The notes: generated by a model from the letters alone, not told the origin. 63,243 bases of DNA, filler included, from Folioceros fuciformis (GCA_049999805.1; 4 parts of 4 records of this genome joined end to end with filler, not necessarily neighbours in it); one strand, 5' to 3'. Numbered from the whole stretch's first letter, positions 24,726 to 53,020 are shown. Program-made: numbers and translations.

Positions 24726-25047
24726 AGCTCCCCCTTCAGTCCCTCGGTCCTCACACGCCCACAAATTTGGCAAGCCCTGGCGGCGAGAGCGGGAGCGTGA
24801 AAAAGTGCTATAAGCAAGAAGCAGGTGGCGTATTGCCCCGCGGAGCCGTGAACACTCTCGCCACTTCGTTGCCCGCGCCGGACGAAACCGCGGCAATCCA
24901 AAATTCCGACCGTTCAAGTTTCCGCGCGTTACTCGAATTCGGAGGATTTCTCTTTTGCAAGCCAAGCAACGCGAGGGTGAAAAGCAAGGAAGTACTAGAA
25001 GTTTTTTTTACTGCGGAGAGGATTAAACTGAGCAAGGGAGGCATCAC

Positions 25048-25147
25048 NNNNNNNNNNNNNNNNNNNNNNNNNNNNNNNNNNNNNNNNNNNNTTAATTAAT
25101 TAANNNNNNNNNNNNNNNNNNNNNNNNNNNNNNNNNNNNNNNNNNNN
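25048..25147. other. Assembly join: N-gap with TTAATTAATTAA linker
   Basis: 100-bp N run with a central six-frame-stop linker. Confidence 0.97.
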
Positions 25148-28100: not shown

Positions 28101-29461
28101 GATAATGTGACCAACAGAAACATAGCTCTTACGGAATCTGGGAATGAGATACCTTGAGATGAGAGCTGGCTGAAAATGGTATTGAACTCATTCAAATGAT
28201 CGGACATCCTCGTCCCTTCCTTCATCTTCAAGTCCACCAGCTGTTTCAACCGGTACACCTGAGAAGCTGCACTTTGCTTCTCATATAGGTCACACAACTT
28301 CTGCCATAGCTCGTAATTTGTGGTCTTGTCTTTTACATTGAAGTAGACCGACTTCAACAATGTTAGCATGATGGTAGACCTAGCAAGCTCATATAGATCC
28401 TGCCACTCATCCTAAGTCATGCTAACAGGTTTCACTCCTAGCAACTTTATGGGCTTGATTTGCTTCTTCTGCACTAGAACATTATACACTTGTTCTTTCT
28501 AGAACAGGAAGTTAGTATCATCTAACTTCTTGATATTGAACATGACCTTTACTGAGGACGTCATCATTCAAAATCGATGCAAATCAAGCAAAAGGCTAGT
28601 TAGAAACTGTTGGAATGTAATGTAGATTTTGATAGTTACTCTCACACCTTGTTCTGAATCGGTTGTCCACAATTTAGGTCGACACGACAGGCCTAAATCC
28701 TCCGATCGAGATCTCTGATCCACCTCACGGCCGGGATCCTGCTAGTTCGCACTCACGTCGCCCGCGCCCCGGCGCCTGTGCCTCAGCGTCTTCGCATCGA
28801 TCACGCCTCGGTGCCCTCACTCGCGGCGTCCATGGCGCTCCGCGGCGCCCAGCGCTCGCCGCTTCGGTGCCGGCGCCAGCGCCAGCGCTCGTGGGGCCTG
28901 GCGCCCCAACGCCCGTGTCAGGTGCCTACGGAGCTCGGGGGGCCTAGCGCCCCCGAGGCACCTAGGCGACCTGACACCCCCTCCCCGGGGCGGCTGGGGG
29001 CTGGCAGCCCCTGCAGCAGGGGACCGCTGGGCTGGCGGTGCCCACGCTGGGGTCGGGCCTAGTGCCCCGCACCCGTGGCTGGTGCTTTGGCCCCCTTGGT
29101 GCCCGGTGCCCCACCTAGATGCCCATCCTCACAACCTTGCGCCTTTGTCCGCATCACCTGCAGCCAACACTATCTTACTCCACACCCACGCTTTGATATC
29201 CGTCGAAGGATCGATAGAGGAGCTACAGGGTGAAGGAGGAGAGGAGAAAGAGAGGTCTCACACTCTCACAATGTCTCTATTGCAAGGGAGCTCAAGGGGG
29301 TATTTATACCCTCTATAAGAGCTCCCAAGGAAGCTGCGCAAGAAGCTTCTTACAAATTACCTTAAGCTAATCTAAACAAATGATACTTAACTAGACACTA
29401 ATCTTAGACTAAACACATTAGTCTAAGCACATTGGGCTTTAATGACCCTACACTGTCAACA
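25148..29461 (-). mobile_element. Decayed Ty1/copia element (Tnt1/Tork-like), 3' part lost in gap
   Basis: 5' LTR ~29461-29201 (TGTTGAC..., TATAAATA); degenerate PBS GATATCAAAGC 29200-29190; gag ATG 28567; CYRCHKNGHIRRD; WIIDSGASFHV; LVHSDVCG; LYVDDML; YSSAVGSLMYAMIATRPDIA. Multiple stops and frameshifts. Confidence 0.92.
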
Positions 29462-32624: not shown

Positions 32625-35600
32625 TGTTAAGCATGATTAATGTTGATATTAATTAGTGTTAATCCAGCTTATTGAGTTTGTACTAATTAGTGGTAAGAGT
32701 GATTAAGGTTATGATTTATATATATAAATATATATAGCTTATTAGACTTTGCTATGTTGGGCAAAAGAAGTATTGTAGGGTTTGGTTGGGGTCATTTATC
32801 CCATATTGGGCACAAAATGAGAGTGCCACCCATAGGTCCATAAAAGAAGGGATGAACCCACTTAGTATAGGCAGTCTAACTCCCTCTTCACTTGTATTGT
32901 GTTGTTTTTGTAATTCTCCTTTTTATTTGAGTTTAAGAGCCTTGTTATAGTGCTCTTAGTTTTGGGATTCTGCATCTTGCTTCAACTAACTTGTTTTAAC
33001 CTCCTTTGAGCATGGCGGGGGTGACATCTCAACAGGTTATGGGCCCACACACCCAAGGGACCGTCACTCTACAAGTTATCTCAAAGTTTGGAGGTGACAA
33101 CTTCAACTTGTGGAAGTTCAAGATGCAAATGTTGTTGGCTGAAAAAGGCCTTTGGGGAATTGTGTCGGGGACCGAGGAGCGTCCAAATGAAGTGGAGAGA
33201 CAGCCCAAGTGGGATGAGCTTGCAGGCAAGGCCTTTGCAAATATTTGTTTCAACTTAGAAGATGCACAATTGATGCATGTGACCACTTGCAAATCAGCAA
33301 GAGAGGCTTGGTTGAAATTAGAGGCTTTGTATGAGAACAAGAGCCTTGTGAATCGCTTGTTCTTAAGGCGTAGATTCTTTTCCATTCAAATGGGTGAGAG
33401 TGATAGTGTGATTGAGCATGTAGACAAGGTGAGGAGTCTTTCCCAACAATTGGCAGTCATTGGAGCTCCTGTGACGGATGATGACCTTGTGATGACTCTT
33501 CTTGCAAGCTTGCCGGAGTCATATAACAATTTGATTGTTGCTTTAGAATCAAGAGTAGATGCTCTTACATTTGAGATTGTTGTGGGAAGACTACTCCATG
33601 AGGAGACCAAACGAAAGGAGAAGGGGAAGACATCGGAAGAATCAGCCTTTGTGACCAAGAAGATTGGCGATGGATCAGCCAACCTTGTGAAACAAACGGA
33701 GGCCTCTTCATTCACGGGGAGAAATCGTAGATCTAATCTCACTTGCAATTACTGTGGCAAGGTTGGACATTTTGCAAGGAATTGCTTCAAGAGAGATCGA
33801 GATGAGAAGACAAAGAGTCAAGGAAACTTCGTGGAAGAGTATGAGGAAGCTTTTGTGTGCACACATCATCCCTCCAAGCAAGTCGAAGAATGGTACATTG
33901 ATTCGGGAGCTACGGAGCACATGACCAATAGGCGTGAGTGGTTCCAATCTTTCAAGTCCATTGCTGCTACCAAGATCTATTTGGGTGATAATTCAATCCA
34001 AATGTGTGAGGGGGAAGGTGTTGTGGCAATGGATATGACCACACCTAACGGAGTAGTGCGTGGGATGTTGAAAAGGGTGCTATACGTACCAGGCTTGGGG
34101 AAGAACTTGTTTTCCGTGAGTGCAACCACCTCTCTAGGATTGGTAGTGAGATTTGAAGGATCTAATGTGTCTTTCACTAATGCGCACGGAGAAGTGAGGG
34201 CACAAGGAGAAAAGATTGGCAAGCTCTATTGCTTGAGTGGGAGCGTTGTCATGCCGAGGTCGAGCATCGAGGAGGCAAATGTGGTACAAAAGAACACTAA
34301 CAAGTTGCTCTTATGGCACCAAAGGCTAGGACATCTTGGCGTTCAAAACATCAAGCTCATGGATCGTAAGAAAATGGTGCAAGGACTCGATCTTGGTGAA
34401 GACGAAGACATTGGCGTTTGCAAAGGGTGTATTATGGGTAAGCAACACCGCCTTCCATTTCCAAAGCAAGGAAGTAGATCCAATCATTTGTTAGAGGTGG
34501 TGCATACAGACATCTGTGGTCCCATGAAGACCACATCCATAGGAGGTGCTAAGTATTTTCTTACCTTCACGGATGATAAGTCTAGATATACGACGGTGTA
34601 CTTTTTGAAATCCAAGGAGGCATGCTTCTCCAAATTCAAGGAGTACAAAGCATTTGTGGAGAACCAAATTGGGAGAAAGATCAAGACTCTACGAAGTGAC
34701 AATGGAGGGGAGTACATGTCCAAGGAATTTGAGATGTTTTGCAAGGAGCACGGAATTGTTCATCAATTCTCAGCACCTTATAGTCCTCAACAAAACGGAG
34801 TTGCAGAACGCAAAAATAGAACTTTGGTAGAATGTGCAAGAAGTATGTTGCACCATGGAGGATTGGGATATGAGTTTTGGGGTGAGGCTATTGCAACTGC
34901 TGTGTATCTAACAAATAGGAGTGTGACTGCATCATTGGAGGGCATCACACCCGAAGAGTGTTGGACCGGAAGGAAGCCTTCCATTGCTCATTTGCATGTC
35001 TTTGGGTGCAAGGCATTTGTGCATAAGTCCAAGGAGATAAGAACCAAGTTGGAGGCAAAGTCAGTGGAGTGTATTTTTGTAGGTTATGACTTGGAGAGAA
35101 AAGCTTTTCGATTGTATGACGAGGGAGCGAAGCGTGTCATAATTAGTAGGGATGTGATTTTTGAGGAAAATGGAGTTGCTATCACTAAGATTCCAAATGT
35201 GTCTATTGTGAATGATGATGATGACTTTACAGTGGCCCTAGAAGAAACAACAAGGGATGATGCTTCTATTGAAGAGAACAAGGGGATTTCTGATGAAGGA
35301 GAAGTAGAGGAGCAAGCACAAAGGCAAGAAACGCCTCCACCAAAGAGGTATCCGACAAGGGAGCGACGGCCACCTAAGGATTGGAGAGAAGGACCAGAGT
35401 TTGCTTCCATTGCTATGACACACGGAAGGGAACCATTGACTGTGGCTGAAGCTCTACAAGGGAAGGATTGCGAGCACTGGAAAGAAGCCATGGATGAGGA
35501 GATGAGGTCCCTTGAAGGTAATGATACGTGGATGTTGACAACATTGCCCGCAGGAAGGAATGCCATTGGGTGTAAATGGGTGTTTAGAATCAAGAGAAAT

Positions 35601-37058
35601 GCAAGTGGGAAAATTGATAGATTCAAGGCTAGGTTGGTGGTGAAGGGATACTCCCAAGAGGAGGGCATTGACTACAATGAGACATTTGCACCAGTTGCCA
35701 AGTTTGCATCCATCAGAACCTTACTTGCAGTGGGAGCAATGTATGATTTGGAGATTCATCAAATGGATGTGAAAACAGCATTTCTAAATGGGGACTTGGA
35801 GGAAGACATTTACATGGAGCAACCCCAAGGCTATGTAGTTATGGGCAAGGAGAACATGGTTTGCAAATTGAAGAAAGCTCTTTATGGATTGAAGCAGGCT
35901 CCAAGAGCTTGGTATCAAAAGATTAACTCATATCTTTTGGAGCAGGGTTTTCGGCAATGCACATCAGATGAGAGCATCTACATTTTTGAGGTCTCCCAAA
36001 GTAAGGTAATCTTAGCCATATATGTGGATGATCTTATCTTGTTGAGTCCATCTTTAAGCAGTATTGATAAAGTGAAGGAGATGTTGTCAAAGAAGTTTGA
36101 AATGAAGGACTTAGGGAACATCAACTATTGTCTTGGAATTGAAGTGCGGAGGGATAGGGCAGCACGTATCATCAGGCTTGGTCAGCAAGGGTATGTTGAG
36201 GGATTATTGGAGCGATTTGGAATGATGGATTGCAAGCCTATTGGGACCCCTCAAGACTTAGGCGTGAAGTTGTGTAAGGTTGACTACTCATCAAATGATG
36301 GGGAGGAGCATGAGATGAGTAACATCCCATATAGGGCAGCAGTTGGAAGTTTGATGTATGCCATGGTAGGAACACGTCCAGACATTGCAAAGGCAGTGGG
36401 AGTAGTGAGCCAATTTATGCAAAGCCCTGGAAAGCAACATTGGATTGCGGTGAAAAGGATCATGCGATACTTGAGAGGTACAAGTGATATGTGGTTGGAA
36501 TTCTCGGGTGGAATCAAATGCCATAATATTATTGGGTATTGTGACTCCGATTGGGGAAGTGATCTTGATGATAGAAGATCAACTACAGGATATACTTTTA
36601 TTTTAGGAGGAGGTGCCATTACCTGGAATAGTAAGAAGCAACCCACGGTGGCCATATCGACAGTTGAAGCTGAGTACATGGCATCCACACAAGCCACCAA
36701 GGAGGCCGTATGGTTGAGAAAGCTCATGGAGGAGATTGGTTATGAACAATTGCATCCGACCACTCTTAGGAGCGATAGTCAAGGAAGTATGGCCTTGATC
36801 AAGAATCCAGTGCATCATGCAAGGACAAAGCATATTGACATTCAACATCACTTTGTACGTGAGAAGGTGAAGTTATTGGAGGTTACCTTTGAATATTGCA
36901 ACACTGAGGAAATGGCTGCAGATTTCTTAACCAAGGCAGTGAGTAAGTTCAAGTTTGAGAAATGCAGGGGACTACTTGGACTGAAGCAAACTCAAGTGCG
37001 CTGAGTGGGAGTGTTAAGCATGATTAATGTTGATATTAATTAGTGTTAATCCAGCTTA
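32625..37058 (+). mobile_element. Intact, young Ty1/copia LTR retrotransposon (3' LTR runs into gap)
   Basis: 5' LTR 32625-33034 (TG...CA); PBS GGTTATGGGCCCA 33035-33047; PPT GAGTGGGAG 37003-37011; 3' LTR from 37012 is identical to the 5' LTR over all 47 visible bp. Confidence 0.96.
33012..37004 (+). CDS. Copia gag-pol polyprotein, uninterrupted (~1330 aa)
   Basis: Gag KFGGDNFNLWKFKM; CNYCGKVGHFARNC; protease WYIDSGATEHM; LWHQRLGH/CKGC; integrase VHTDICGP, RSDNGGEY, NGVAERKNRT; RT IYVDDLI; RNase H YCDSDW, EAEY, ADFLTK. Confidence 0.97.
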   Translation: MAGVTSQQVMGPHTQGTVTLQVISKFGGDNFNLWKFKMQMLLAEKGLWGIVSGTEERPNEVERQPKWDELAGKAFANICFNLEDAQLMHVTTCKSAREAWLKLEALYENKSLVNRLFLRRRFFSIQMGESDSVIEHVDKVRSLSQQLAVIGAPVTDDDLVMTLLASLPESYNNLIVALESRVDALTFEIVVGRLLHEETKRKEKGKTSEESAFVTKKIGDGSANLVKQTEASSFTGRNRRSNLTCNYCGKVGHFARNCFKRDRDEKTKSQGNFVEEYEEAFVCTHHPSKQVEEWYIDSGATEHMTNRREWFQSFKSIAATKIYLGDNSIQMCEGEGVVAMDMTTPNGVVRGMLKRVLYVPGLGKNLFSVSATTSLGLVVRFEGSNVSFTNAHGEVRAQGEKIGKLYCLSGSVVMPRSSIEEANVVQKNTNKLLLWHQRLGHLGVQNIKLMDRKKMVQGLDLGEDEDIGVCKGCIMGKQHRLPFPKQGSRSNHLLEVVHTDICGPMKTTSIGGAKYFLTFTDDKSRYTTVYFLKSKEACFSKFKEYKAFVENQIGRKIKTLRSDNGGEYMSKEFEMFCKEHGIVHQFSAPYSPQQNGVAERKNRTLVECARSMLHHGGLGYEFWGEAIATAVYLTNRSVTASLEGITPEECWTGRKPSIAHLHVFGCKAFVHKSKEIRTKLEAKSVECIFVGYDLERKAFRLYDEGAKRVIISRDVIFEENGVAITKIPNVSIVNDDDDFTVALEETTRDDASIEENKGISDEGEVEEQAQRQETPPPKRYPTRERRPPKDWREGPEFASIAMTHGREPLTVAEALQGKDCEHWKEAMDEEMRSLEGNDTWMLTTLPAGRNAIGCKWVFRIKRNASGKIDRFKARLVVKGYSQEEGIDYNETFAPVAKFASIRTLLAVGAMYDLEIHQMDVKTAFLNGDLEEDIYMEQPQGYVVMGKENMVCKLKKALYGLKQAPRAWYQKINSYLLEQGFRQCTSDESIYIFEVSQSKVILAIYVDDLILLSPSLSSIDKVKEMLSKKFEMKDLGNINYCLGIEVRRDRAARIIRLGQQGYVEGLLERFGMMDCKPIGTPQDLGVKLCKVDYSSNDGEEHEMSNIPYRAAVGSLMYAMVGTRPDIAKAVGVVSQFMQSPGKQHWIAVKRIMRYLRGTSDMWLEFSGGIKCHNIIGYCDSDWGSDLDDRRSTTGYTFILGGGAITWNSKKQPTVAISTVEAEYMASTQATKEAVWLRKLMEEIGYEQLHPTTLRSDSQGSMALIKNPVHHARTKHIDIQHHFVREKVKLLEVTFEYCNTEEMAADFLTKAVSKFKFEKCRGLLGLKQTQVR

Positions 37059-37158
37059 NNNNNNNNNNNNNNNNNNNNNNNNNNNNNNNNNNNNNNNNNN
37101 NNTTAATTAATTAANNNNNNNNNNNNNNNNNNNNNNNNNNNNNNNNNNNNNNNNNNNN
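37059..37158. other. Assembly join: N-gap with TTAATTAATTAA linker
   Basis: 100-bp N run with a central linker. Confidence 0.97.
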
Positions 37159-37387
37159 TGAAAGGCTGCAGCAGTAATGGCGCTCCAAGGCCGGCTGTAC
37201 AAGGGATGGGGTTGCGTCCCTCTCAATAACAATTCCAAGTGTGAACTTCTGTGTCTTGAATATGTGCGCTATGGGTTGGAGACATTCGATCGATAGAGGT
37301 CTAATTTTGCAAGTTGTCCCCTTGTCACAAGAGGACCAGGAAGATCCTTGGGGTGGTCGAGAGCTATGTGACCAGCTCCTTGATAGG

Positions 37388-37790
37388 TGTGGCTAGTGGA
37401 AGGGGTGTTCTGCACCTGTAAGGAAGAGAAATTTCTGCAGAAGGTCGGGGTGGGGAACGCGAGTTTTGAGAAACCCCCTAGAAAGCCGAGAGGGAGCGCG
37501 AGTTTCATGAAACTCTTGAGAGCTGGCCGACTGTGATTTTTCCCTTCCTCACTCCGTTGTCTAACCAAGTCGTGTTTAGATCTATGTGAGGAGTCTATGT
37601 GGCTTAAGGAGGAGTCTGTGTGGCTCAAGGAGAGGCTTGTGTGGCCTAAGGAGAGGCATGTTTGGCCTAGGAGGGGACTGTGTGTCCCAAAGGTTGGGGT
37701 GGCTAGTGGAGAAGAGTGCTGTGCACCGGGAGAAAGGGGGATTTCTGCAGAAGGTCAGGGTGGGAATGCGAGTTTCGCAAAACCCCTGGA
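37388..37790. repeat. LTR-like fragment with a ~90-bp direct repeat and internal ~21-bp tandem units
   Basis: GTGGCTAGTGGA...ATTTCTGCAGAAGGTC...AAACCCC at ~37388 and ~37700; GTGGC(T/C)(T/C)AAGGAG units at 37600-37670. Confidence 0.6.
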
Positions 37791-40700
37791 TAATGAAATA
37801 GTTAAGTCACCTAAAGTTAGGTTAACTAAGTGTTTGTGGTTTTATGAACAGTTATAACCACCTGCACAAACTTTGCATATATCTTTGGATTTCCCGTGAA
37901 ACTAATAACCGCTTTTATTCTTCCTTCACGTGCATGCTAGCACCGATGCTCTCTCAACCTCTCGTGCCCCTCGTGATCCACAATAACATTATGGTATCAG
38001 AGCCAGGTGATCGGAGCACGAGCTCAGATGCGCTGTCTTACAAGATGCCGAAGAGAGGGCCCGTAGCACGCGCGCCATGAAGGAGGTGTTTGTAGAAGGG
38101 GAACAAATCCCCGTGACAAGGAGAACCTTTGTGTGTCCAAGCTATTGGGAAGACGATCAATCTCCTATCCCGACATCCCGACACATCAAAAGATTGTTTC
38201 AATGGGAACGACTACAACACGTGGTCATTAAGGTTGACACAAATCTTTGAGAAAAATGAGCTTATGTCCGTGGTGGATGGGAGTGTGAGATGCCTTGCTG
38301 CACCAACAACCAATGCTGCCGACGTACTTGATTGGAAACGAAAGGGCAGGAGAGCACGTTCTATTCTCATTGCCTCACTGGACAGAAATATGATGCCTCA
38401 CACTCTTGGTGCTGACACCTCTGCAGCTGTGTGGCACAGTTTTGCCTAGATTTACAAGGATAAGAGCAATGCTTCCCAAGTCTTTGCACACAGGGACTTT
38501 TACGGCATGAGAATGAAGGATAGTGACTCTGTCGAGTCCTACATCAATCATTTCAGAACTGCACGTGCAACTTTGGCATATTGTGGTACTATTCACACTG
38601 AAGAACAAGCAGGAACGTGTCTGTTGGCTTCTTTACCCCAAGCTACAGCCACTTTATGAGCTCGCAGTTTGCTCAAGCCTTGTCTGCAACAACTAGAGGC
38701 CTGCCTGGTATAACCTCGGATGAACTAATTGGAGCTCTTTTAGTGGAGGAACGCACCAAGGGTTTCCACAAAGGAGTCAAAGGGGAATCACAGCAGCACT
38801 CCAGAGTTTTGTTTTCTGGTCGAGGCAGAGGGAGTTTTCGAGGACGTGGTCGTGGTGGACAAGGGTGTGGAGGCTACCCCACAGCTAAGCAACCGAACTT
38901 GCAAAGGAAAATCTTCACTTGTCATTGGTGTAAGATTCCTGGTCACTTTGAGAAAGACCCGGAAAAAGCTTGCTGGGGAGCCTCTTAAGGAAGGGACTTC
39001 TCATGAGTCAAACCTGACCACATCGAAGTCTCCAACCATGGCTAAGTCCCCTTCCATTTTAGCAGTCTGTCTATCTTCTCTGCAAATTTAGGCTGATATG
39101 TGGTTTTTGGACTCTTGTGCCACAAATCACATCTGCTATGATAGGAGAGCTTTTAGCAACTTTTCCTCTACTCCTGACAGTCTGCAGTTCGTTTTGCTAG
39201 GGGATGACAGTGGTCTGGCCATCAAAGGTTCGGGTTCAGTCACCATCGAGTTGCCTAATTCTGAGGTCATAACCTTGTCAAGTGTGCTTCATGTTCCAGC
39301 CATGACCAAGAACCTCATGTTGGTCATGAAGTTAGCAGAAGAGCACTCTTGTCGTATATGCTTTGATCACACGGGCTGCTCAATATCTCGCATACCTGGT
39401 TGGGATGACATTTTTTCAGGCACTCCCTTTAATGATCTGTACCTTTTAAATGTAAGAACTGTACCACACCAGCCCACTGTCCATATTAGTTAGTCTCCTT
39501 TTTTATCTCCAACGCAACTGTGGCACTGTCGCCTTGGCCATGTCAACTTCCAGAGGCTTTCAACCTTGGTTAACAACACTGTTTTTCATGATCAGTTGTC
39601 TTTTCCCTTTGATAGGCAAGACTTTTGTGACTCCTTCCAAGTTAGCAAGGCTATTTCCCAGCCCTTCTGAGATCAGACCCTATCAGGAGCCACTTCCCTG
39701 TTACATACAATCCATAGTGATCTATGTGGTCCAATGTCCACAGCGTCTTTTGGAGGTGCCCTTTACTTTCTTACCTTCATCAATGAAGGGAGTCGTTATT
39801 GTTCAGTCTATGTGCTGCATAGCAAGAGTGACACCTTCACCTATTTTCAAGACTATGTGGCCATGGCACAGCGATAGACAGGGTGCAAGCTTAAGATATT
39901 TCGATCCGACAATGGAGGGGAGTACATCAATCATGCCTTCTTTGATTTTTGCTCGACAGAGGGAGTTATTCATCAATTCACGGTTCCTTATACCCCTGCT
40001 TAGAATTCCTTTGCTGAACGCAAGAATAGGACACTCTAGGAAGCCACTCTTTGTAGCTTATCTTTTGCTGGTTTGACTCGTGGATATTGGGCAGAGGCAT
40101 TAGTGGCCACCAACTATGTACAGAATCGGCTTCCCACTAAGGAACTTGGTCTCATCAGACCTTACGAAAAGTGGACAGGCAAGAAACCCCGTATCTCTCA
40201 TTTGCGGATTTTTGGCAGTCTTGCATATGCCTTGGTTCCCTCTCAACTGCGAAACAAACTGGATCCCAAGGCAGTTCGACACACATTTGTGGGTTATGCA
40301 GAAGATGTGAAGGGTTACAAGCTCTTTGACCCAAGTACCCGTCAGCTTTCCTATTCCCGTAGTGTCATTTTTCCTTGTTACGACGTCATGATATCTTGCT
40401 TTCCCCCTCTTCTGTCTTGCCACCTACCACGATACAAGATGTTGATGATGAGCTTGATTTTGCCACTGACAAGGACATTGATGTTGCTATTTTTGATTTT
40501 GATGATCTCACTATAGGCCCTACTACTTCAGCTTCACGGGGGCAGAACATACAATCACCCTTCAACAGCAGTCACACTGATGTCACCCACAGTTCAGATG
40601 AGTTACCTGTACCTTGTTCTTCTAGTTCTCTTGCTGATCCTGTGACTGTTGTTGAACCTGTAGCAGTAGACCCTCCTGTCAATTTTCTGGTATATTTACC

Positions 40701-42622
40701 TCCTACTGGTGCTGGGCCCGATCCTTCTACCTATGTCGATGATCAGCCAACTTCACCAGTCCTTCGTAGGTCTTCTCGTCATCGTCTCCCAAGGCATGAA
40801 TGGAAAGAACCCCCTTTTGTAGCAGGCATAGCTTCCACACCTCCTAAACCCAACTTCAACACTCATGAGCCTTTGACCTACCTAGAAGCCATTACTGGTC
40901 CAGAGGCAGAATTATGGAAGGAGTCCATTCAGTCTGAATACGACTCACTCATAACTAATGGCACTTGGAAGCTGGTTGACTTGCCTGTAGGTCGGAAGCC
41001 AGTTTCCTGCAAGTGGGTTTTCAAGAAGAAACTCAACACAGATGGAAGTGTGGGTCATTACAAATCCAAACTTGTGGCAAAGGGTTATAGTCAGGTTGCT
41101 AGCCTAGACTATAATGAAACGTTTGCTCCTGTGGTTAAATCCACTTCCGTTAGGATATTGTTATCTCTGGCTGCTCATTATGGTTTGCATGTCCACCAAC
41201 TTGATGTAAAAACTGCATTCCTTCATGGTACTTTAGAAGAGGAAATCTATATGCAGCAGCCCAAAGGATTTGTCATTGATGAGGAGAAAGTATGCTTGTT
41301 ACTTAAAACATTATATGGTCTCAAACAATCCAGTCGAGCTTGGAATAAGACGTTTCATGCATTATTGATTGAGTTAGGATTTACTTGTTTGGATGCTGAC
41401 AATACCGTTTACATACTTTGGGACGGAGATGACTTCCTTATTCTGTCCGTTTATGTGGACGACAATTTTCTCTTTAGCACTTCTCTTGTTTTGATGGCTA
41501 GGGTTAAAAGTGCCCTCCTTTTGCGTTTTGACATGAGTGATCTTGGATAGCTTAGTTTTTCCTTGGGTGTTCAATTTCAGTTTTCCGAGGACAGACACAC
41601 TATTGAGCTGCATCAGGAGCATTTTGTGACACAGCTATTGCAGCGTTTCAACATGGAAGAGGCCCGTCCTGTTTCAACACCCATGTCCACCAGTGAGAAG
41701 TTATCCAAGGAGGATTGTCCTACTACTCAGGAAGAGAAGGATTTAATGACTACTCGTCCCTACAGGCAGGCAGTAGGTAGCCTTTTGTATTTAGCTGCTT
41801 GGACCAGGCTAGATATTTCAAGGGCAGTTAGCAATGTTTCGCAGTTCTTAGAAAATCTGGGTGAAGTGCATTGGTCAGCCGTGAAGAGGATATTGTGGTA
41901 TCTTAAGGGCACACCCCGACTTGGTTTGAAGTATACTAAGCAATCTTCTGGGTTGGAGCTTGTTAGCTACTGCGACGCTGATTGGGCAGGTGACCCTGAT
42001 TCACGACGAAGCATAGCAGCTTATTGCAATATTTTGGGAGGTGCAGTGGTATCCTAGTCGAGTAAGAAGCTTACGACCATCTACTTATCTTCTACTGAAG
42101 CTGAGTACAGAGCTCTATCTCAAGCTGCCCGTGAGGTCATTTGGATCCGTTCTTTCCTTCGAGGCCTTCAGCAATTGCCAGCAGGTGCTACAAGATTATG
42201 GTGTGACAATCAGTCAGCTATTGCACTTACAAGGAATCCAGTTTTTCACGCCGTTCTAAAGACATTAAGATCACTCACCATTTCATCAAGCAAGCTTATG
42301 ACACAAGTGAGGTTGATGTTCGCTATGTGCCTACTGGGGATAATGTAGCTGATGTATTAACTAAGTCATCACCAAAATTGCTGCACACTAAGCATGTAAC
42401 TGCAGCAGGGCTTAGCCAAATCTCTCTTACACATAAGCTAGGAACTGCCCACTAGCCTGCTAGTCTTCACAGCATGCTGATAGATTGATGTGGTATCCCT
42501 TGTCCTTAATCTTCTTCTTCAGACATTGCAACAACTGGTCTGTCTCCTTCAATTTTTCCAAGAGGGCTGCAGGTGTTCAGGCAAGGTGAGTATAAGTGAT
42601 GGTTGAAAGCATGCTTCAGAAG

Positions 42623-45600
42623 TGTGGAGTGATTTCTTGCACCCAAGAACCACCGAAGGACCACACATCCCCTTATTGTCGTTGCAGTCTTATGATTCGC
42701 TCCCAAGGGAGTGAACTAGTGCCAAGGAACACTACCTATCACACTTCTACCTATCAGCCGGTTTATAGGCCTGAGCATGCACACACAACAAGCAGGCCAG
42801 AAGCCTAGCCTATCCTCAAATCAGCTCACAACAACTCACACTCCAAATCTTCAGTCCTTCAACTCCTCATGATTCCCACTTCAGTCCTTTCTTCTTCACT
42901 TCAGCCCTTCATGATTCCCACTTCAGTCCTTTCCTCTTCACTTCAGCCCTTCACCCTTCACTTCAGCACACACTCCTGCACTTCAGCAACTCACCCTTCA
43001 CTTCTATGCATTTCACTCCAACTCTTCCTCTCTTTGCTTTAGCTATCCCCTGGAAATTGGAACACAACGGCTTCACTCCTTGCAGCCTTTAAGCATAGTG
43101 TGGATACTAGGACTGGATAGCCCTCCAGGCTCACGGTCCTGTCCCCTCACTTTAGCCAGCCTGCGAATCATTCAAGCCTTGCGGATCCGGCCACACGGAT
43201 CTTGACAGCCTTGGGATCTCTACGTTCCCCTAGTGGCAAGGGAAATCAGGACCTCGGTTCAGTCTCAATTGGCTCAGCGCCCTAAGCCAAGAGTTCTGCA
43301 CACAAGGTCCAGGGACATCGCACCGTAGACAGCCCCTCTCTCAATGGCAGGTCTCCCCTCTTATACTGCCTAGCCATTGTCTCTGTCTACTAGGGTTAAC
43401 CTGAGTCAACTACCTAACCATCTCTTTCTCTGACCTAAACCATCCTACATCCGGTTCTGACCAAAACCTAACCTACATCTGACCTAAACCTAACCTAGGT
43501 CTGACCTAGACCTAACCTATGTCTGACCTAGACCTAACCTATGTGTGACCTAACCCTAATCTAGGCCTGCCTAGACCTAACCTAGGTCTGACCTAAACCT
43601 AACCTAGGCCTGACCTATTCCCAACCCTAACTCTAACCTACCCCTGCTTCTAATTGCCCCTTAACACCGTTAGCTGCCCTTTGCCCCAAACTCATCAACC
43701 CCTCACAACTACCACAAATCAGGGGTGCTTATCTTTCCCCCTTCTCCTCTCCCGGATGGAATTATCTCCTGCCCTTCGACCATCCTGCATTCTTCAGAGC
43801 CTTCCATCTTTCAGGTTCCCCCTCCATTCTACCAACATAACCACCACTAGCTTCTCACCCACTAGCAGCACACCTGTACTAGACCTTCCGCCCAGCGGAT
43901 GGAAAGCCAAATGCCACTTATGTCATATATTTGGATGGGGTGGTATCCTTCAGTTTCGTCCGCACGCATTCTCTTGGCAGCCTTCGCCTCCAACCCTCGT
44001 TCAGGCCACCGTAACCCCCTTGCTCAAAGCTAGACTCGAACCAAAGCCAAACTCGAGCTGTTTCCACTCCCTATGTCCACTTTTAGGGGTCTGGCGGCTG
44101 AGATGGGTCCTTCTGCCTCAGCCAGCCACCATTTGCTTGGTTCTAACCCGAACCCGACCTTTACAGCTTGGCTGCCTGAGCCCCTCGTTCCCGCCTGGAT
44201 TCCATTGGCGCCCTGTTTGTGACCCTGTCACGACTGGCCATTAGCCGGGGTAGTACTGATCCAGCGCACTGCAACCGAAGCCCCCCACACCAGACTTTCC
44301 CTGGCTAGTTCCTCTATTGAAGCCACCTTCACTTGCCACTGCTTAGCAAAAACCCGCAAAAACCCACAAAAACCCGGGTTCCAATTCCGGCTCGGGCACA
44401 TCTAGAGAGAACAGGCTGACAAGCCTCCATCTCTTCCCCCTGGGCAGCCACCTACTCAGCTGTTAGACCTATTGGCTGCCCAACCAGCCATCTGGCCCGT
44501 CTTCGGTTGCTAGATCCGGTCGAGACCATTCTGTCCAGCCCAAAGGAACGACCATACAGAACCGCCAATGGGGTCAGTTGATATGCACTGCACCTGGTTT
44601 GACTGGGATTTGGAACAAGCCGCTCTCCTTGGTTTGCAGTGCACTAAGTGCAAGTCCGTCCGTGCCTGGATGCTCTTGGATTCAACCGCTTATCCTCAAC
44701 CGCCGTCTGGATTCGGCCAGCACGCCGTGACTCCCCTAGCTCTGCTTCCAGCAAAACTGCGACCATCCCAGCTGCTCGATCTCTAGTTGATCGGGACTGA
44801 ATTCAATCAGCTCGCCTGGTGCTGAGTCACCTGCCATTTTCCTGATTCAGCTACCTGGCTAGCCGACCAGACTCGACTGGCCAGCCTGCCTTTGCCTGTA
44901 TCTGGCCAGGCGGCCCGCCCGTAGGCCGCCTACTGCCCACTTGCAATTGGAGCGGGCTGGGTTGTTGACCAGACTCCTCACCGCCATCTCCAGCCAGCAT
45001 CCCCCTTGTTCGGCCAGCCGTCACGACTCATCTCGGTTGCTCGCGGCCGGCCATTCGCCTGGCTAAAACAGCTAGCCGGGCCACTAGCCCAACCCCCTTC
45101 AGATCCACTTGTCCCGCTTGCCCAACCAACTGGCTAGAGGCCCCTAGCTGCCAGGTTGCCCCAGCCAGTGGATCCGCACCCCTATCGGCCCCTGAGTGCC
45201 TGGCTGCTGCTCAGCAGCTGGTCGCTGCTGAGCCAGCCCCCCCTGCTACTCGTCCTGCCGATCCAACCAGGCGCCCACCTGCCATGCTGATGGGCCAGGC
45301 TGTCTGTCTGTTGGCTGACTGGCAGGATCTGCCTGCCATTCTGATTTCCACCCCTACTAGGCTGCNNNNNNNNNNNNNNNNNNNNNNNNNNNNNNNNNNN
45401 NNNNNNNNNNNNNNNNNNNNNNNNNNNNNNNNNNNNNNNNNNNNNNNNNNNNNNNNNNNNNNNNNCTTGTAGTGGCCCCAGCTAGCCGATCAGCCAGAAC
45501 GCTGCCTGGCTCTAGCCATGGCTAGCCGTTTCACCAGCCACCAACTTCCCTGGCTCGCTCTTGGCTAGATTTGATGCCCACTCGGCCTAGTTCCGACTCC

Positions 45601-46713
45601 GAGTTGCTACACCCAACCCGACTGATCACTTCACGAGAGCCCGGCTGCTTGACTAGCTTCAGGACCCGACCCCAACCGCCAACGCCTGCTGCTGCCTGAG
45701 AGCTGGCCAGGCCGTTGCCTGGATTCACCTTAGCCTGTCCACCAGTCAGGTAGTCGCCTCCCCGGATCCACCTAGCCAGTCGGCCTGCTGGATCCGGCCT
45801 GTAAGGCCGCATCCAGCCCGCCACCAACCAGCAGCTACGGCCAGCCGACTCTCTGTCTGGCTAAAACCAAATCCACCAGGACTGGCTGCCTTCCCCGGCC
45901 AGGCGGTTACCTGGCTACCCGGCTGGATCTGCCTACCAGCCAGGCCACACACCGCCCTCCTGGCCAATTCGCTTAGGCTGCCCACCTGCTTGGCGTGCTT
46001 GCGTTGGGCTGGACCAACCCCAGCCAACCCGGTTAGCCGACCAGCCGGCCAGCCTGCCTGGCTTCGGGATATGGCCCTGTCTGGCCTGCCGGTTCTGTTT
46101 ATCAGCTTGCAGATCCTCCCCGACCAAGATCCCCCTCAGCCAGCCAGCCTGCTCCTGCTACTTGCCAGGTTGGGCTGGGCTGTCTGGCGTTCCGGCCAGA
46201 CCCGCCTGGATCACCTGCCGGGCGACCTGCCTCTCAGCAGCCGCTGCCAGCCGCCTGGCCCAGCCACCTACCAGCCCTCCTGGAGCCTGCCGACCAGGCG
46301 GCCTCCCGTCCTAACTAACGCTTGCTAGGGGCCTAGGTGCCCTCCTGCTAGCCCCGATCCGGCTAGCCGCCATGACCGAGTCAACTCGAAGCGCCCGGAC
46401 CTGCTTGTTGCTCCTCAGTCCTCAGTCCACCCTGTTCCGGCTAGCCATCCTCATGCACTGCCTGCCTGCTCCATGGAACCCCACTTGCCTCCTACCCACA
46501 GATCTAGGGCTCCACACACACACCTGAACACCCTCACCAAGGGCACATATATCCGTGGCCTACCTACCGCACATCCCACCAAACCCCTATCGACCCACCG
46601 TTAATCTAACCTAATTTCTAACCACTCCTCCACAAATTTCAATCAGAAAACCAACCAAATAAAAACAAACTCTGTCATTTCTTAGGGGATCTACTCGTCA
46701 TGTGGACTCCACA
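42623..46713 (-). mobile_element. ~4.1-kb solo-LTR-like element (same family terminus as 18201 and 31382)
   Basis: Perfect 8-bp terminal inverted repeats TGTGGAGT...ACTCCACA; 5-bp TSD AGAAG at 42618-42622 and 46714-46718; GGACCACACATCCC...TGTCGTTG...GATTCG..CCCAAGGGA terminal homology. Contains a 100-N gap. Confidence 0.88.
43430..43640. repeat. 22-bp tandem array (CTGACCTAGAC-CTAACCTAGGT) inside the solo LTR
   Basis: Seven or more degenerate units of CTGACCTA(A/G)ACCTAACCTA(G/T)GT. Confidence 0.8.
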
Positions 46714-47451
46714 AGAAGTCAGCAGGGCACATTAGGGTAGGGTGGATGAAGAAGTCACGTACATGTAGGCGCATGTCCTTCATTGTCAGGGTCGTCGTAT
46801 CTTCTCTTTTTCCCTTTATCGCAAGCAGAGGGAGCTTCAACACTTGAACCAGGTATGTCAGTCATACGCATCAGAATTTGTTGCTCCTCCTTACTCAGGT
46901 GTTTCTCTACTCCCCAGAAAATGTGGTATTTGTAGTAGTAGTCCAGCTCCCCTTTTTCTTCTAGCATGGCTTTCATCATTGCAGCCTGGTACTCACTCCT
47001 TGACAATCTGCCCTCAAAGGATACTAGTGGTGAAGTATCGTAAGGTTGTGCCTTGTCTCCTATAGGAGTGAGGGTCTTCAGGTATACTCTCGCCCATTCC
47101 TTTTGAGCCTACTGCTCCTTTGTCTTGGGTGCATTGATGTCACTAGGGTGGTACTCACAAACCTTTTGGTGAAGAACCCACTGTCTGCTAGAGAACTTGG
47201 ATGCAGGGACCCATTCCCTGCCACAATGGAGGCACTCCACACCTCTGAGGACATGTTGTGTGGGAGGCTCCATCAACAGACAATAGTGCTTACACTTCAA
47301 TAGCCAGAAAGCCAGGCTAGCAGCTGCGCAACATATAGGTTACAGTATTGGAATGGAGTAGGGAGCGCTATGGTTTTATCCAGAGTATGAGGGAGCGTAA
47401 GATGTGAGCTGGATGAGCGCAAGGATTGAGCTTGAGCGTGAGCGGAGGACA

Positions 47452-47551
47452 NNNNNNNNNNNNNNNNNNNNNNNNNNNNNNNNNNNNNNNNNNNNTTAAT
47501 TAATTAANNNNNNNNNNNNNNNNNNNNNNNNNNNNNNNNNNNNNNNNNNNN
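47452..47551. other. Assembly join: N-gap with TTAATTAATTAA linker
   Basis: 100-bp N run with a central linker. Confidence 0.97.
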
Positions 47552-50500
47552 AAGCGTATAAGCTGGTCAACGCAGATACTGGGTCCATTGTGCTCGCAAC
47601 GCAGTGTGACCTTCCTTGAACCCGCAGTCCCAGCATCTGTTATGGACAACAACAGCTTACCCCAGATTTCTTCAGATGTGGATGCCCTTGCAGCCTCAGA
47701 TCTTGATGCCTGTGATTATCCTCTGGACGACATGGAGCAAGCTGTTCTTTTGCCTAACCACAGTTTACCTGCTCCAGATCCGAACGCAGGCCCTGCTCCA
47801 GTCCCTGTCAACCCTGGATTAGGCCATCAGCCTGACCTCTTTTTGCCTGACGACGAGGGGCCCTTCTAGATGCAGAGGGGGTGCCTAACTTGGGTGCAGT
47901 AGATGCTGCTGATGCTATCGATCCGCCTGATCCTGATCTTGAGCCTGATGACCCACAACTAGATGAGGCTGCACCCGAACCTGACCTAGGGCTCAGGAGG
48001 TCTACACGACGTCGGCCACCACCTGCAGAATGGGATGAACCCCGCTATCAGTCAGTGGATTTTAGAACACATCTTGTTCCAAGCCTTGCTGCGAGCACCG
48101 TTCTACCTGATGAGCCTACCAACCTTTCCCAAGCCTTCAATGGCCCTTAACATGTGCAGTGGAAGGTAGCAATGGAGGATGAATATCAATCGCTTGTGAA
48201 GAACAATACCTGGATTCTTGCTGACCTTCCACTAGGCCGCAAGGCCATATCCTGCAAGTGGGTGTTCAAGCTCAAGCTGAATGCAAAAGGGGAAGTTGCC
48301 CGTTTTAAAGCTCGACTTGTGGCCAGAGGGTTCATGCAAGTGGAGGGGCTCGACTACCAGGAGACATTCTCACCTGTAGTTTGCAGTCAATCCATCCGGT
48401 TTATACTTGCCTATGCCATAGAATTTGATCTCGATCTTCAGCAGATGGACGTGTGCACGGCTTTTCTGTATGGAGCTCTTGATGAAGAATTATACGTGCT
48501 CCAGCCAGAGGCCTGTGAGGATTCTGCACATCCCCACAAGGTGTTAAGACTCTTGAAATGCACATATGGTTTGAAACAAAGCGGGAGAGTGTGGTATATC
48601 ACCATGCATCTGTATCCACTCAGCATAGATTTTGTTCAGAACACAACTAATACCAATGTTTATAGCTTCTGGCTTTGTATGTGGATGATGTTGTCCTTGC
48701 CACAAACGATCAAGCATTGTTGTCAATAGCCAAGCAAAAACTTAACGACAAGTTTGACATGAAAAATATTGGCGAACTAAAGTTTTGCTTGGGTATACAG
48801 CTGCTAAGAGTCAGGGATGCAGGCTTGATGTTCATACACCAGTACAAGTATGTAAACGAGATACTTAAGAAGTTCAATCTCGATCAAGCACGACCAGCGA
48901 CCACACCCTGTGCAACTAGTACCAAGCTAACACTTTCAAAGTGCCCACAGACATCGGATGAGATCAAAGACATGGAAGACGTACCTTACAGGCACGCAGT
49001 TGGCAGCCTACTCTTCGTTGCCAACTGGACCAGGCCAGACATACAATATGCAGTCGGTACAGTTTCCCAGTTTCTTGAGAATCCTGGGAGAGCGCATTGG
49101 ACGGCTGTGAAGAGGATCTTCCGCTAGCTCAAGGGCACACATAAATATGGTCTCATGTATAAACGCAGTGGTGCATCCAACCTTACTCTGTCCGGATTTA
49201 TAGACGCTAACTGGGCCTCAGACCCTGACTCTCGGCGAAGCTTGTCGACATACTGTTTTCTCCTTGCTTCAGCTGCCTCAACTGGAGTAGTAAAAAACAG
49301 CCTTCCATAGCTCTGAGCTCCATTGAGGTAGAATACAAGTCTATGACCGAGGCAGCCAAAGAAGCTGAGTGGGAGCGTAGCTTCCTTGCTGATCTTGGCC
49401 AGGTTCAGCATCACCGTACTTTAATCCTCTGCGACAAGATGTCGGCACTCGAGTTAGTGGCCAAGCCTACCTTTCACGCCAGAACCAAACACATCGAGAT
49501 ACAACATCACTATATCCGTGAAGTTGTTGCTCGTGGTGTTATCAAGGTGGGATATATCTGCACAGATGACAATACCGCTGACATCTTAACCAAAGGGCTA
49601 CCCAAGCACAAGCATTATGTTCACATGCAAGGGTTAGGTGTTCATGATTTCTCTCCCCATATCGATCAATGAGGACACTTATCTATTTTGGTAGTGGGGG
49701 GGGGGGGGGGGGGGGGTGTACTGTTTTTGGTTGATGCTCCCTACATCCAACCAGCTAAGTTGTTAACTCCCTGCACAAGGAGACAGGCAACAGGTTAAAA
49801 ACAGCTCAGAATTGCTTTCCTGGGTCACAGCAAGTGGATGAAGCTCTCACGACGAACCTAATCATTTTGTTGGTGATTACCTCTTTTCTACTTGGGAGTT
49901 TTTAGCTGATACATCAGCCGAGAAGTCTCCCGAAGGTTCCTGATCAGCTCACTTCCATCCAAGCTCTCGGGATTGATGTCATTGTCTTGCTCTGGCCGGG
50001 TTAGGCGCCGTCCAAATCCTACCACCATTAAATCGCACCTTCAATCCTAAGGGGTGCAAGACTTGGCCGATGCTGACGTTGGGTTTGGAGTCCTGGCGGC
50101 TGCTGTCAGCTCCAGCAGATTCCAGCCGAACAGATGGCTGGTTCTGTCTTGCCCCTCTAGCAGGTTTAGGCGGCTGCTCGCAACTCGTGGTATCAACAAA
50201 GTACTTATGCCCGCTCTTTGTCATCATTGCTGTGCGCCACAGGAACTGCGCTACTGCGAGCAAAACGTTAGGGTTTGTTGTGTGATCAGTTGTTTAAGCT
50301 CGTCGAGGTTAAGAGGGGGTGTGCAGATATAAGTATATAACCTAATACTCGCTTAAGTACTAATAACATATATACGTTAGGGTTATGAAAGGTCATTTGG
50401 TGAAGCGACACTATGGCTAGTTTTAAGAAGTAGTTTAGACAAACATTTTTGTATTGTACATTATCTTATCAATCTAAGTTTCAGCTTTCTAGTCTCCAAC

Positions 50501-51268: not shown

Positions 51269-53020
51269 TGTTAGGGGGATAGAAGTATGAATGCTTGAAA
51301 TTATAGACCAAAGCTCAAGGTGTGCATTATGTTTCAGGTTACATGTGGTCTGGATTGATGTGCACAGATGTGTGAATTTTTGCGTCTTACCTTAGAGAAT
51401 GTAGAGAAGGTACATAGTTCTTATGGTTTGACCACGCTTGGTGTGTAACCGTCTACTTTAAGTAACGTTTCGTGGTTGGCACAAAGCATGCCCTAATGCT
51501 AAGGACGCTACATATCTCAACACTCCCACTTAGCGTGCGTGCATTAGGTACTTAAGTTGTGATGCTAGTCTGGGCTAGCTACTAACTATTTTCCTCTATC
51601 TCTAATAATCTTCTCAGTCCCATGGAAGCGCAATGTTGTTGATGCTTGATGCAGCTAAGTGCCTTGGTCAGGATGTCTACCGTCATTTGCTCTGTTGGAC
51701 AATACACTTCTAATTTACCATGCTTAACTACTTTTCGAATGAAATGAAATTGCACCTCGATGTGTTTGGTGCAAGCATAGAACTAGGGATTATAGTTGAG
51801 TGAGATGGCGCCTTGATTGTCGCAAAAGAGAAGTCTTGGCAGTCATTGCACTTCTCCTAATTCTGAGAGTTGGAGTAGTTGCCAAAGTCCCTCTTTGCAA
51901 GCATGTGTTAATGAGCAGTACTATGCTTCTGTTGAGCTTAAGGCTATAACTTGTTGCTCAGCTAGTGGCTATCCCTCCTAGTGTGTATACATAGCTGCTA
52001 ATGCTCCTTTTGACGCAATGATCTCCTAGCCCAATGGGCTGAATCCTTGGAGTTGGAGAGGCTCACCTTGCTTGGTAGATGATTGGTATAAAAGTCCCAT
52101 GTTAGATGTGGATCTAAGATATCTAAAGATCCGCTTGATGGCCTTCCAGTGCTGTTGTGTACGGGATGAGAGGAACTATGAAAGAGCTCTGGCTGGAAAG
52201 GCGAGGTCCGGCCTGGTGCAAACCATTAAATACATAAGGCTACCACTTGCTAAGGAGTAAGGAAAGTCATAGGAGTTGAGATGTTCACTTGAGACTTCGT
52301 CTGCTTTAATGAGCTTGAGATTTACTTCCATTGGTGTGGATATGGGTTTAGACTATGACATATTGTACTTAGATAGGACCTCACGAATGTATTTGGATTG
52401 ATGTATTAATGTGCTTCTAGATTCCCTGAGTCCTGACTATCTAAATTCCTAGACAATAAGATACTTCCCTGCATGTGGTCATAGCAAAAAGTTTCAAAAG
52501 CATTGACCTGGTGTTTTCTAACAAAGACTTAGAATTGGACATAAGTACTATGTCATCTACATATACGGCAAGGAGAATGAAGTGGTTGTCTAATCTATTG
52601 ATATAGACATTGCTATTAGACTCTAGCCTGGAAAATCCCACTTCTAAGGTTTCATCTAACTTGGCATACCATTCCATAGTACTTTGTTTTAATCCATAAA
52701 GTGACTTGCTTCTAAGGTTTCATCTAACTTGGCATACCACTCCATAGTACTTTGTTTTAATCCATAAAGTGACTTGCTTCTAAGGTTTCATCTAACTTGG
52801 CATACCACTCCATAGTATTTTGTTTTAATCCATAAAGTGACTTCAATAATAATCCTTCATGTATCTCCATATATATATATATATATATATGGTATGTTAG
52901 AAGTCACCATATAAAAATGCAGTTTTTATATCCAATTGCATGAGCTCATAATTATGGTGAGAAGCTAGTGCTATGAAGGTTCTAAGTGAGGTGATCTTAA
53001 GTATTGGACTAAACGTCCCA
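51269..53020 (-). mobile_element. Decayed Ty1/copia RT-RNase H fragment with 3' LTR
   Basis: LMQLDIKTAFLYGD, GLKQ..MEWY, LAVYVDDIV, SLMYLMVCTRPDLA, CTKHIEVQFHFIR; PPT AAGTGGGAG then TGTTGAG at 51522; LTR ~51522-51269. Confidence 0.85.
52641..52843. repeat. 68-bp tandem triplication inside the copia RT
   Basis: CTTCTAAGGTTTCATCTAACTTGGCATACC...AAAGTGACTT starts at 52641, 52709 and 52777. Confidence 0.92.

Follow-up and report, generated by a model that had tools for sequence, protein, structure and literature searches.

Does the stretch of about 900 bp that follows the pol gene of a decayed Ty1/copia retrotransposon in Folioceros fuciformis (GCA_049999805.1) hold an accessory gene of that element, read from the opposite strand and interrupted by an intron? 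The question arises from a first-pass annotation of the window, the whole stretch of 63,243 nucleotides that was analysed, in which a spliced antisense gene had been proposed to lie tail-to-tail against pol in the copia copy at 37794-47451. We put at roughly 40% the probability that the post-pol stretch holds the decayed remains of a lineage-specific antisense extra open reading frame (ORF), of the class that has been named aORF-3R or eORF-3'R, and the proposed intron is less certain than the stretch having been a gene.

The proposed intron is split in the window by a nested insert, which was found where it had been annotated (Table 1). It is 4,091 bp long, its ends read TGTGGAGT...ACTCCACA, and it is flanked by a 5-bp duplication AGAAG at 42618-42622 and 46714-46718. 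In silico excision of the insert together with one AGAAG copy restores on the minus strand a 100-nt interval GTACGT...CTGCAG, as had been predicted, and the joined frame on this strand measures 205 codons with one internal TAG. The proposed first exon, a frame of about 170 codons from an ATG at 47273 and with that single TAG, is present as described, as is the TAG of the proposed final exon (42462-42460), which is separated from the pol stop by the 4 nt at 42456-42459. Without splicing, the antisense ORF stops at a TGA two codons beyond the donor; at its other end, the frame of exon 1 is open 5' of the ATG as far as 47339. Two host genes located elsewhere in the window roughly bear out the expectation that introns here are typically about 100 nt long: the gaps between consecutive Pfam-matching exons measure about 145 nt (DUF599) and about 80 nt (RIO kinase).

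The predicted product carries near its N-terminus the motif C14-x2-C17-x17-H35-x3-C39-x2-H42. The Cys/His motif that had been noticed earlier is present, with an internal spacing of x17 and not x15. Exon 1 also encodes a basic patch, KGKKRR, which may be read as a nuclear localisation signal, and exon 2 contributes a charged C-terminal tail. On the plus strand, where an env-like ORF of the SIRE type would be expected, no frame in 46719-47451 exceeds 98 codons and none has a family match.

The host element is a Ty1/copia retrotransposon, in agreement with the annotation. A Pfam scan placed the copia-type gag domain PF14223 at 38117-38446 and the Pol beta-barrel domain Pol_BBD at 39092-39490. 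The integrase domain SH3_retrovirus (40040-40513) precedes RVT_2 (40363-41547), which is the copia domain order, and the copy runs colinear with the 1334-aa polyprotein of an intact copia element in the window (33000-37004), over residues 30-1330 of the latter. The copy is old and dead, its aligned pol segments of about 1100 codons containing eight in-frame stops and using three frames. The C-terminus of pol is genuine, with a stop TAG at 42453-42455, and the closest reverse transcriptase relatives in the protein library show just 53-59% identity. Of the annotated 5' long terminal repeat (LTR; 37794-37988), the 3' edge is anchored by the primer-binding site TGGTATCAGAGC, which is complementary to the consensus 3' end of initiator tRNA-Met. 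Its 5' edge is conjectural, with another possible TG start at 37831; near 37790-37850, both contig depth and base composition shift. No second copy of the LTR was detected in the window by self-blastn, by short-word blastn with 37700-38020 or with two start motifs. Without the nested insert and without a 3' LTR, the copia copy would measure about 5.56 kb.

Evidence that the post-pol stretch belongs to this element comes from contigs of the public DNA runs X1 and X2, both from one sample, which were placed on the window at a likeness of at least 80%. A related contig of 1578 nt in X1 and 1561 nt in X2 (depth 44.3 and 58.6) matches 41974-42523 with 67 differences, corresponding to about 87% identity to the end of pol, then 46741-46836 and then 47394-47451, in the same order and on the same strand, with the nested insert skipped. 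For comparison, an exact-match contig had a depth of 19.6 and others about 8-12, and contigs that look single-copy ranged from about 8 to 20. The related contig represents a sister subfamily present in several near-identical copies, its middle block covering the donor region. Since three colinear blocks are found in a multi-copy contig that lacks the insert, the roughly 900 bp would belong to a repeated unit, and the post-pol stretch is probably part of the copia element and not unique flanking DNA. The first-pass annotation had reasoned that its proposal would fall if other copies lacked the region between pol and the 3' LTR; the related multi-copy contig keeps all three blocks. Both versions of this contig end 1025 nt beyond position 42523, and only the three blocks, not the joints between them, could be placed on the window. 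If it is colinear with the window, it would run about 193 nt past 47451, near the length of the 195-nt LTR candidate, a coincidence that is not used as evidence.

Even an element-borne stretch may be non-coding. It could be untranslated internal sequence of some length at the 3' side, or else belong to the U3 of a long 3' LTR, the 5' counterpart being truncated at 37794; the frame and the GT..AG interval would then have arisen by chance. The 900-nt post-pol stretch was shuffled 2000 times by dinucleotides. A run of at least 194 codons with at most one stop was reached by just 15 shuffles of this matched composition, which is unusual and argues against a chance origin. The same holds for codon usage. 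By a log-odds score trained on 14 verified ORFs of the window, with leave-one-out tests, the claimed frame ranked first of the six in both exons (exon 1, 0.082; exon 2, 0.169). The verified ORFs score 0.046-0.186 in 13 of the 14 cases, the exception being -0.015, and exon 1, which falls within this range, tops 90.6% of 96 unannotated ORFs of at least 100 codons, the other 9.4% scoring as high. One stop per 205 codons, moreover, fits the decay of pol (at least eight stops in about 1100 aligned codons). Against the long-LTR version it can be added that no purine tract follows the pol stop, and that 37159-37793 and 46719-47451 share nothing.

Other results weigh against a former gene. A stop-free frame of at least 117 codons occurred in 187 of the 2000 shuffles and is unremarkable, and long frames are frequent in the window itself. 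Among 94 unannotated 900-nt windows, some of which surely contain unrecognised genes or skewed repeats, 64 have a stop-free frame of at least 117 codons and 22 have a run of at least 194 codons with at most one stop. Frame length by itself fails to single out the claimed antisense frame. The copy has its internal stop at 47111-47109, and its longest stop-free part, 117 codons, falls short of the uninterrupted 250 codons or more adopted for extra ORFs by Neumann et al. (2019). With respect to the intron, the frame would run on to the same stop with any of 36 GT..AG pairs, of which the proposed one is that with the longest product, and the exon-2 frame is open for just 38 codons; the splice is possible but not needed to account for the frame. 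Furthermore, the 557 nt at 46837-47393, which make up most of exon 1, are unmatched to the related contig at 80% likeness, being in that contig either too diverged to match or replaced. An unmatched middle of exon 1, between a matching pol end and a matching last 58 nt, fits a fast-evolving spacer with a conserved end adjoining the LTR. With no homologue, family or fold found for the frame either, a non-coding stretch is a serious possibility, to which we give slightly lower odds than to a former gene. As a whole, the evidence for more than chance is mixed and equivocal.

To these points the outcome of the searches has to be added, for which the queries were exon 1 (170 aa, its TAG entered as X) or the 114 aa of it that are free of stops. 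With phmmer, 1.84 billion representative proteins gave 0 matches at E<=0.001; a word-indexed protein search gave no match, and none of 89 pattern matches in JGI metagenome contigs was confirmed. No Pfam family reached its threshold. The ESM Atlas provided no usable match, the recognition score being 1475 as against the 2300 that is reached by 91 of 100 known-family proteins, sequences of the PDB gave E values of about 1 at best, and a single-sequence AlphaFold model was unreliable (mean pLDDT, the predicted local distance difference test, 36.8). Two family candidates were set aside: zf-C2HC_2 (PF13913) scored 14.5 bits, below its cut-off of 27 (E = 0.029, 9 residues aligned), and KCTD_C, which appeared for exon 2 alone with 17.7 bits against a cut-off of 27, was treated as chance. 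The zinc-binding regulator that had been suggested has neither a family nor a confident fold behind it and is a guess. A scan for bacterial-type promoters and terminators found nothing, this type of scan not being applicable to plants.

The searches also bear on the explanation that the stretch is a captured fragment of a host gene, consisting of its last two exons and one intron, that was picked up in reverse orientation by an ancestor of the subfamily and has no role for the element. An intron-bearing antisense piece is the expected look of a captured genomic fragment, a frame that stays open upstream of the ATG agrees with it, and gene capture by LTR retrotransposons is discussed in PMC7264820. 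However, no plant protein among the 1.84 billion is similar to the frame, though the host genes of the window have land-plant relatives at 58-64% identity. Captured fragments, moreover, usually occur in one or few copies (PMC7264820), whereas here the flanking blocks lie in a multi-copy contig. We regard capture as improbable.

A final point of this kind concerns the 3' end of the element. The scaffold that carries the antisense reading runs just from 37159 to 47451, interrupted by a single ordinary 100-N gap (45366-45465), and it contains no 3' LTR, no convincing polypurine tract and no target-site duplication that would close the element. Specifically, the downstream 3' LTR matching 37794-37988 that had been anticipated is absent from the scaffold; of the two LTRs and target-site duplication that would surround a whole copia element, only the 5' LTR candidate was found; and 47440-47451 offers only a weak purine-rich end, GAGCGGAGGACA, with no run of at least 8 purines near. 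This could mean that the stretch lies outside the copia element, with the 3' LTR lost, 42456-47451 being flanking DNA or another repeat, and the related contig a segmental duplication. Fewer related contigs are found on 46791-47451, where the summed depth is 27-36 in X1 and 52 in X2 as compared to about 95-250 on pol. Yet the depth of the related contig (about 40-47 in X1 and 52-59 in X2) equals that of other diverged pol contigs, and this contig spans all three blocks. Furthermore, since the scaffold ends at 47451, sequence past this position in the window is not adjacent in the genome, and for the same reason nothing can be read from the missing LTR, which is no argument against copia membership. 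A position outside the element is, in our estimate, rather improbable.

Returning to a former antisense gene, its mode of expression can be envisaged as follows. A promoter would lie either in the 178 nt 5' of the ATG or in the neighbouring 3' LTR and would give rise to an antisense transcript running towards pol and terminating within the 3' end of pol. The 100-nt GT..AG interval, if a real intron, would be spliced only from this antisense transcript. On sense genomic RNA the splice signals would be reverse-complemented, and the interval would be copied at every retrotransposition. The logic of the first-pass annotation, that an intron of an antisense gene can survive retrotransposition in this manner, is sound. 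The product, of about 172 aa if unspliced and 205 aa if spliced, would combine a Cys/His knuckle, a helical middle part, the KGKKRR patch and the charged tail, and may have acted on the element as a small regulator that is nuclear and binds nucleic acid. Another option is that small interfering RNA was produced from the antisense RNA itself. A more far-reaching version is unlikely, namely that in a copia lineage of a non-seed land plant all active copies carry a conserved antisense intron gene, transcribed from the 3' end of the element and encoding a small nuclear Cys/His regulator or anti-silencing protein, with the intron being kept since only the antisense transcript splices it.

Grande, RIRE2, Retand and PvRetro13 are described in PMC7264820 as carrying ORFs in antisense between pol and the 3' LTR. 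According to this paper, their proteins resemble no database entry; some of them are nuclear, and no function is known for them. For the ORFs of Grande, RIRE2 and Retand, it mentions proposals of a role in regulation or in the nucleus and of a promoter of their own. The present frame is like the aORF-3R of these last three Ty3/gypsy elements (gene23 in Grande) in position, orientation and the orphan nature of the protein. It differs from them in belonging to a copia element, in being shorter (172-205 codons), in needing a splice for the longer form and in being known from sequence alone.

For copia elements, the survey of Neumann et al. (2019; PMC6317226) found extra ORFs of at least 250 codons in 582 elements and sorted them into 45 groups. 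Its Additional file 5 gives reverse-oriented 3' extra ORFs for 86% of Retand, 60% of Ogre, 47% of Athila and 1% of SIRE elements. Bianca and Ikeros have extra ORFs in a few percent of cases, the table column being ambiguous, and the copia groups Lyco (lycophyte) and Bryco (moss) have no such ORFs. The background given in the first-pass annotation, that antisense ORFs are known mainly from gypsy elements and that the extra ORF of copia is mostly the sense one of SIRE, agrees with this file. The present frame resembles the eORF-3'R of Ty1/copia in the survey in being a reverse-strand extra ORF 3' of pol in a copia element; unlike those, it would escape the survey, which took only unspliced ORFs of at least 250 codons. 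Among copia elements, SIRE too has an additional ORF behind pol, the env-like eORF-3'F, which is found in 74% of SIRE elements (PMC6317226). The SIRE ORF, however, is sense-oriented, the elements are much longer (mean 9.9 kb), and there is no similarity to the present ORF.

Outside plants, an antisense promoter in the 3' LTR of human T-cell leukaemia virus type 1 (HTLV-1) is cited in PMC7264820. As with the antisense gene of this virus, the transcript proposed here would start from the 3' end of a retroelement. The antisense product of HTLV-1 is spliced and nuclear. Unlike the present element, HTLV-1 is a vertebrate retrovirus, and its basic leucine zipper (bZIP) protein has no sequence relation to the frame described here. 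When the literature was searched for antisense ORFs of LTR retrotransposons that are spliced, only reports on human L1 came up, and the word 'intron' is absent from the main text of a paper on Retand (PMC11963269). If a copia element of a non-seed plant did carry a spliced ORF of about 200 codons in antisense, this would be a rare addition to a known class, not a new kind of system.

Antisense accessory genes have so far been documented almost only in gypsy elements of the Tat, Retand, Ogre and Athila groups, without an assigned function. If the antisense gene is real, it would extend them to copia elements of early-diverging land plants; in the more far-reaching version given above, it would provide a copia counterpart of Grande gene23, as well as a plant retrotransposon analogue of retroviral antisense genes. 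A real antisense gene would also be a natural case of an intron shielded by its orientation from loss in retrotransposition, and would imply that surveys of unspliced ORFs of at least 250 codons overlook such genes. If it is not, the locus is an ordinary decayed copia with a long 3' spacer.

Table 1 Coordinates of the copia copy, the putative antisense gene and associated features, counted from the first letter of the window
Feature	Position	Strand	Remarks
Decayed gag-pol, Ty1/copia	38117-42455	+	At least 8 in-frame stops, at least 2 frameshifts
Candidate 5' LTR	37794-37988	+	3' edge set by primer-binding site; 5' edge a guess
Primer-binding site TGGTATCAGAGC	37993-38004	+	Read directly
Putative last exon	42460-42566	-	107 nt = 2 nt + 35 codons including TAG 42462-42460
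Putative intron, 3' half	42567-42622	-	56 nt, ends CTGCAG
Nested insert	42623-46713		4,091 bp including 100-N gap 45366-45465; TG..CA ends, 8-bp terminal inverted repeat
Putative intron, 5' half	46719-46762	-	44 nt, begins GTACGT
Putative exon 1	46763-47273	-	ATG 47273-47271; 170 codons + 1 nt; internal TAG 47111-47109
Region 5' of antisense ORF to scaffold end	47274-47451		Plus strand purine-rich, five GAGCG motifs
Artificial linkers N44-TTAATTAATTAA-N44	25048-25147, 37059-37158, 47452-47551	No strand	

Neither a coding domain nor a protein family match was found in the nested insert, which is either a solo LTR or else a non-autonomous LTR-type element. Its first 1.1 kb (42663-43694) reaches summed contig depths in the thousands, the remainder being far lower. 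The same part is also covered in run X4, whose status as an RNA run is guessed; this run gives no cover on 46791-47451, and no run recorded as RNA contains the post-pol stretch, neither of which is evidence on expression. The insert further contains 11/22-bp and 20/42-bp tandem repeats, and its plus strand is strongly C-rich.

The 5' flank of the copia copy (37159-37793) is itself repeated at high copy number, 15-19 contigs being placed on one of its variant sites, and has an internal duplication of about 310 bp (37431-37466 matches 37741-37776), and the copia element seems to have landed inside another repeat. In run X3, which is from the same sample as X1 and X2, the differences on 37159-47451 are nearly all C>T (375) or G>A (519), a pattern as in a library prepared by bisulfite or enzymatic conversion.

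The window consists of scaffolds strung together and is not continuous genome. Its joints are 100-base blocks, which are six-frame stop linkers of the type used for stringing scaffolds. Because the window is stitched from unrelated scaffolds, inference across any of the linkers in Table 1 is invalid, and readings that span them, such as LTR pairs or neighbouring copia copies, are unsafe. The host genes located elsewhere in the window code for a RIO kinase, for CGL160 and for proteins of the DUF599, RING-H2 and VID27/CYPRO4 types. For the CYPRO4 protein, the best relatives come from a lycophyte (64% identity), a fern (61%), and Selaginella, gymnosperms and liverworts (58-60%). The gene for this VID27/CYPRO4-like protein is a single open frame of 709 codons without introns (22881-25007, minus strand), and the adjoining DUF599 and RIO kinase genes carry short introns.

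Other retroelement sequences were also found in the window. At 16864-17220 on the minus strand there is a weakly matched fragment of a Ty3/gypsy gag (E about 1e-4 for Retrotrans_gag and Ty3_capsid). Additional pieces of copia pol occur on the minus strand at 25148-28408 and 51609-53016 and on the plus strand at 48112-49672. The scaffold with the intact copia element ends 54 nt past the copia stop, and scaffolds of this assembly break in or beside LTRs. The intact element itself, at 33000-37058, has an uninterrupted gag-pol frame of 1334 aa (33000-37004) and may represent a young, possibly active family; its stop is followed by a purine run, GAGTGGGAG, and then by TGTTAAGC, the likely start of its 3' LTR.

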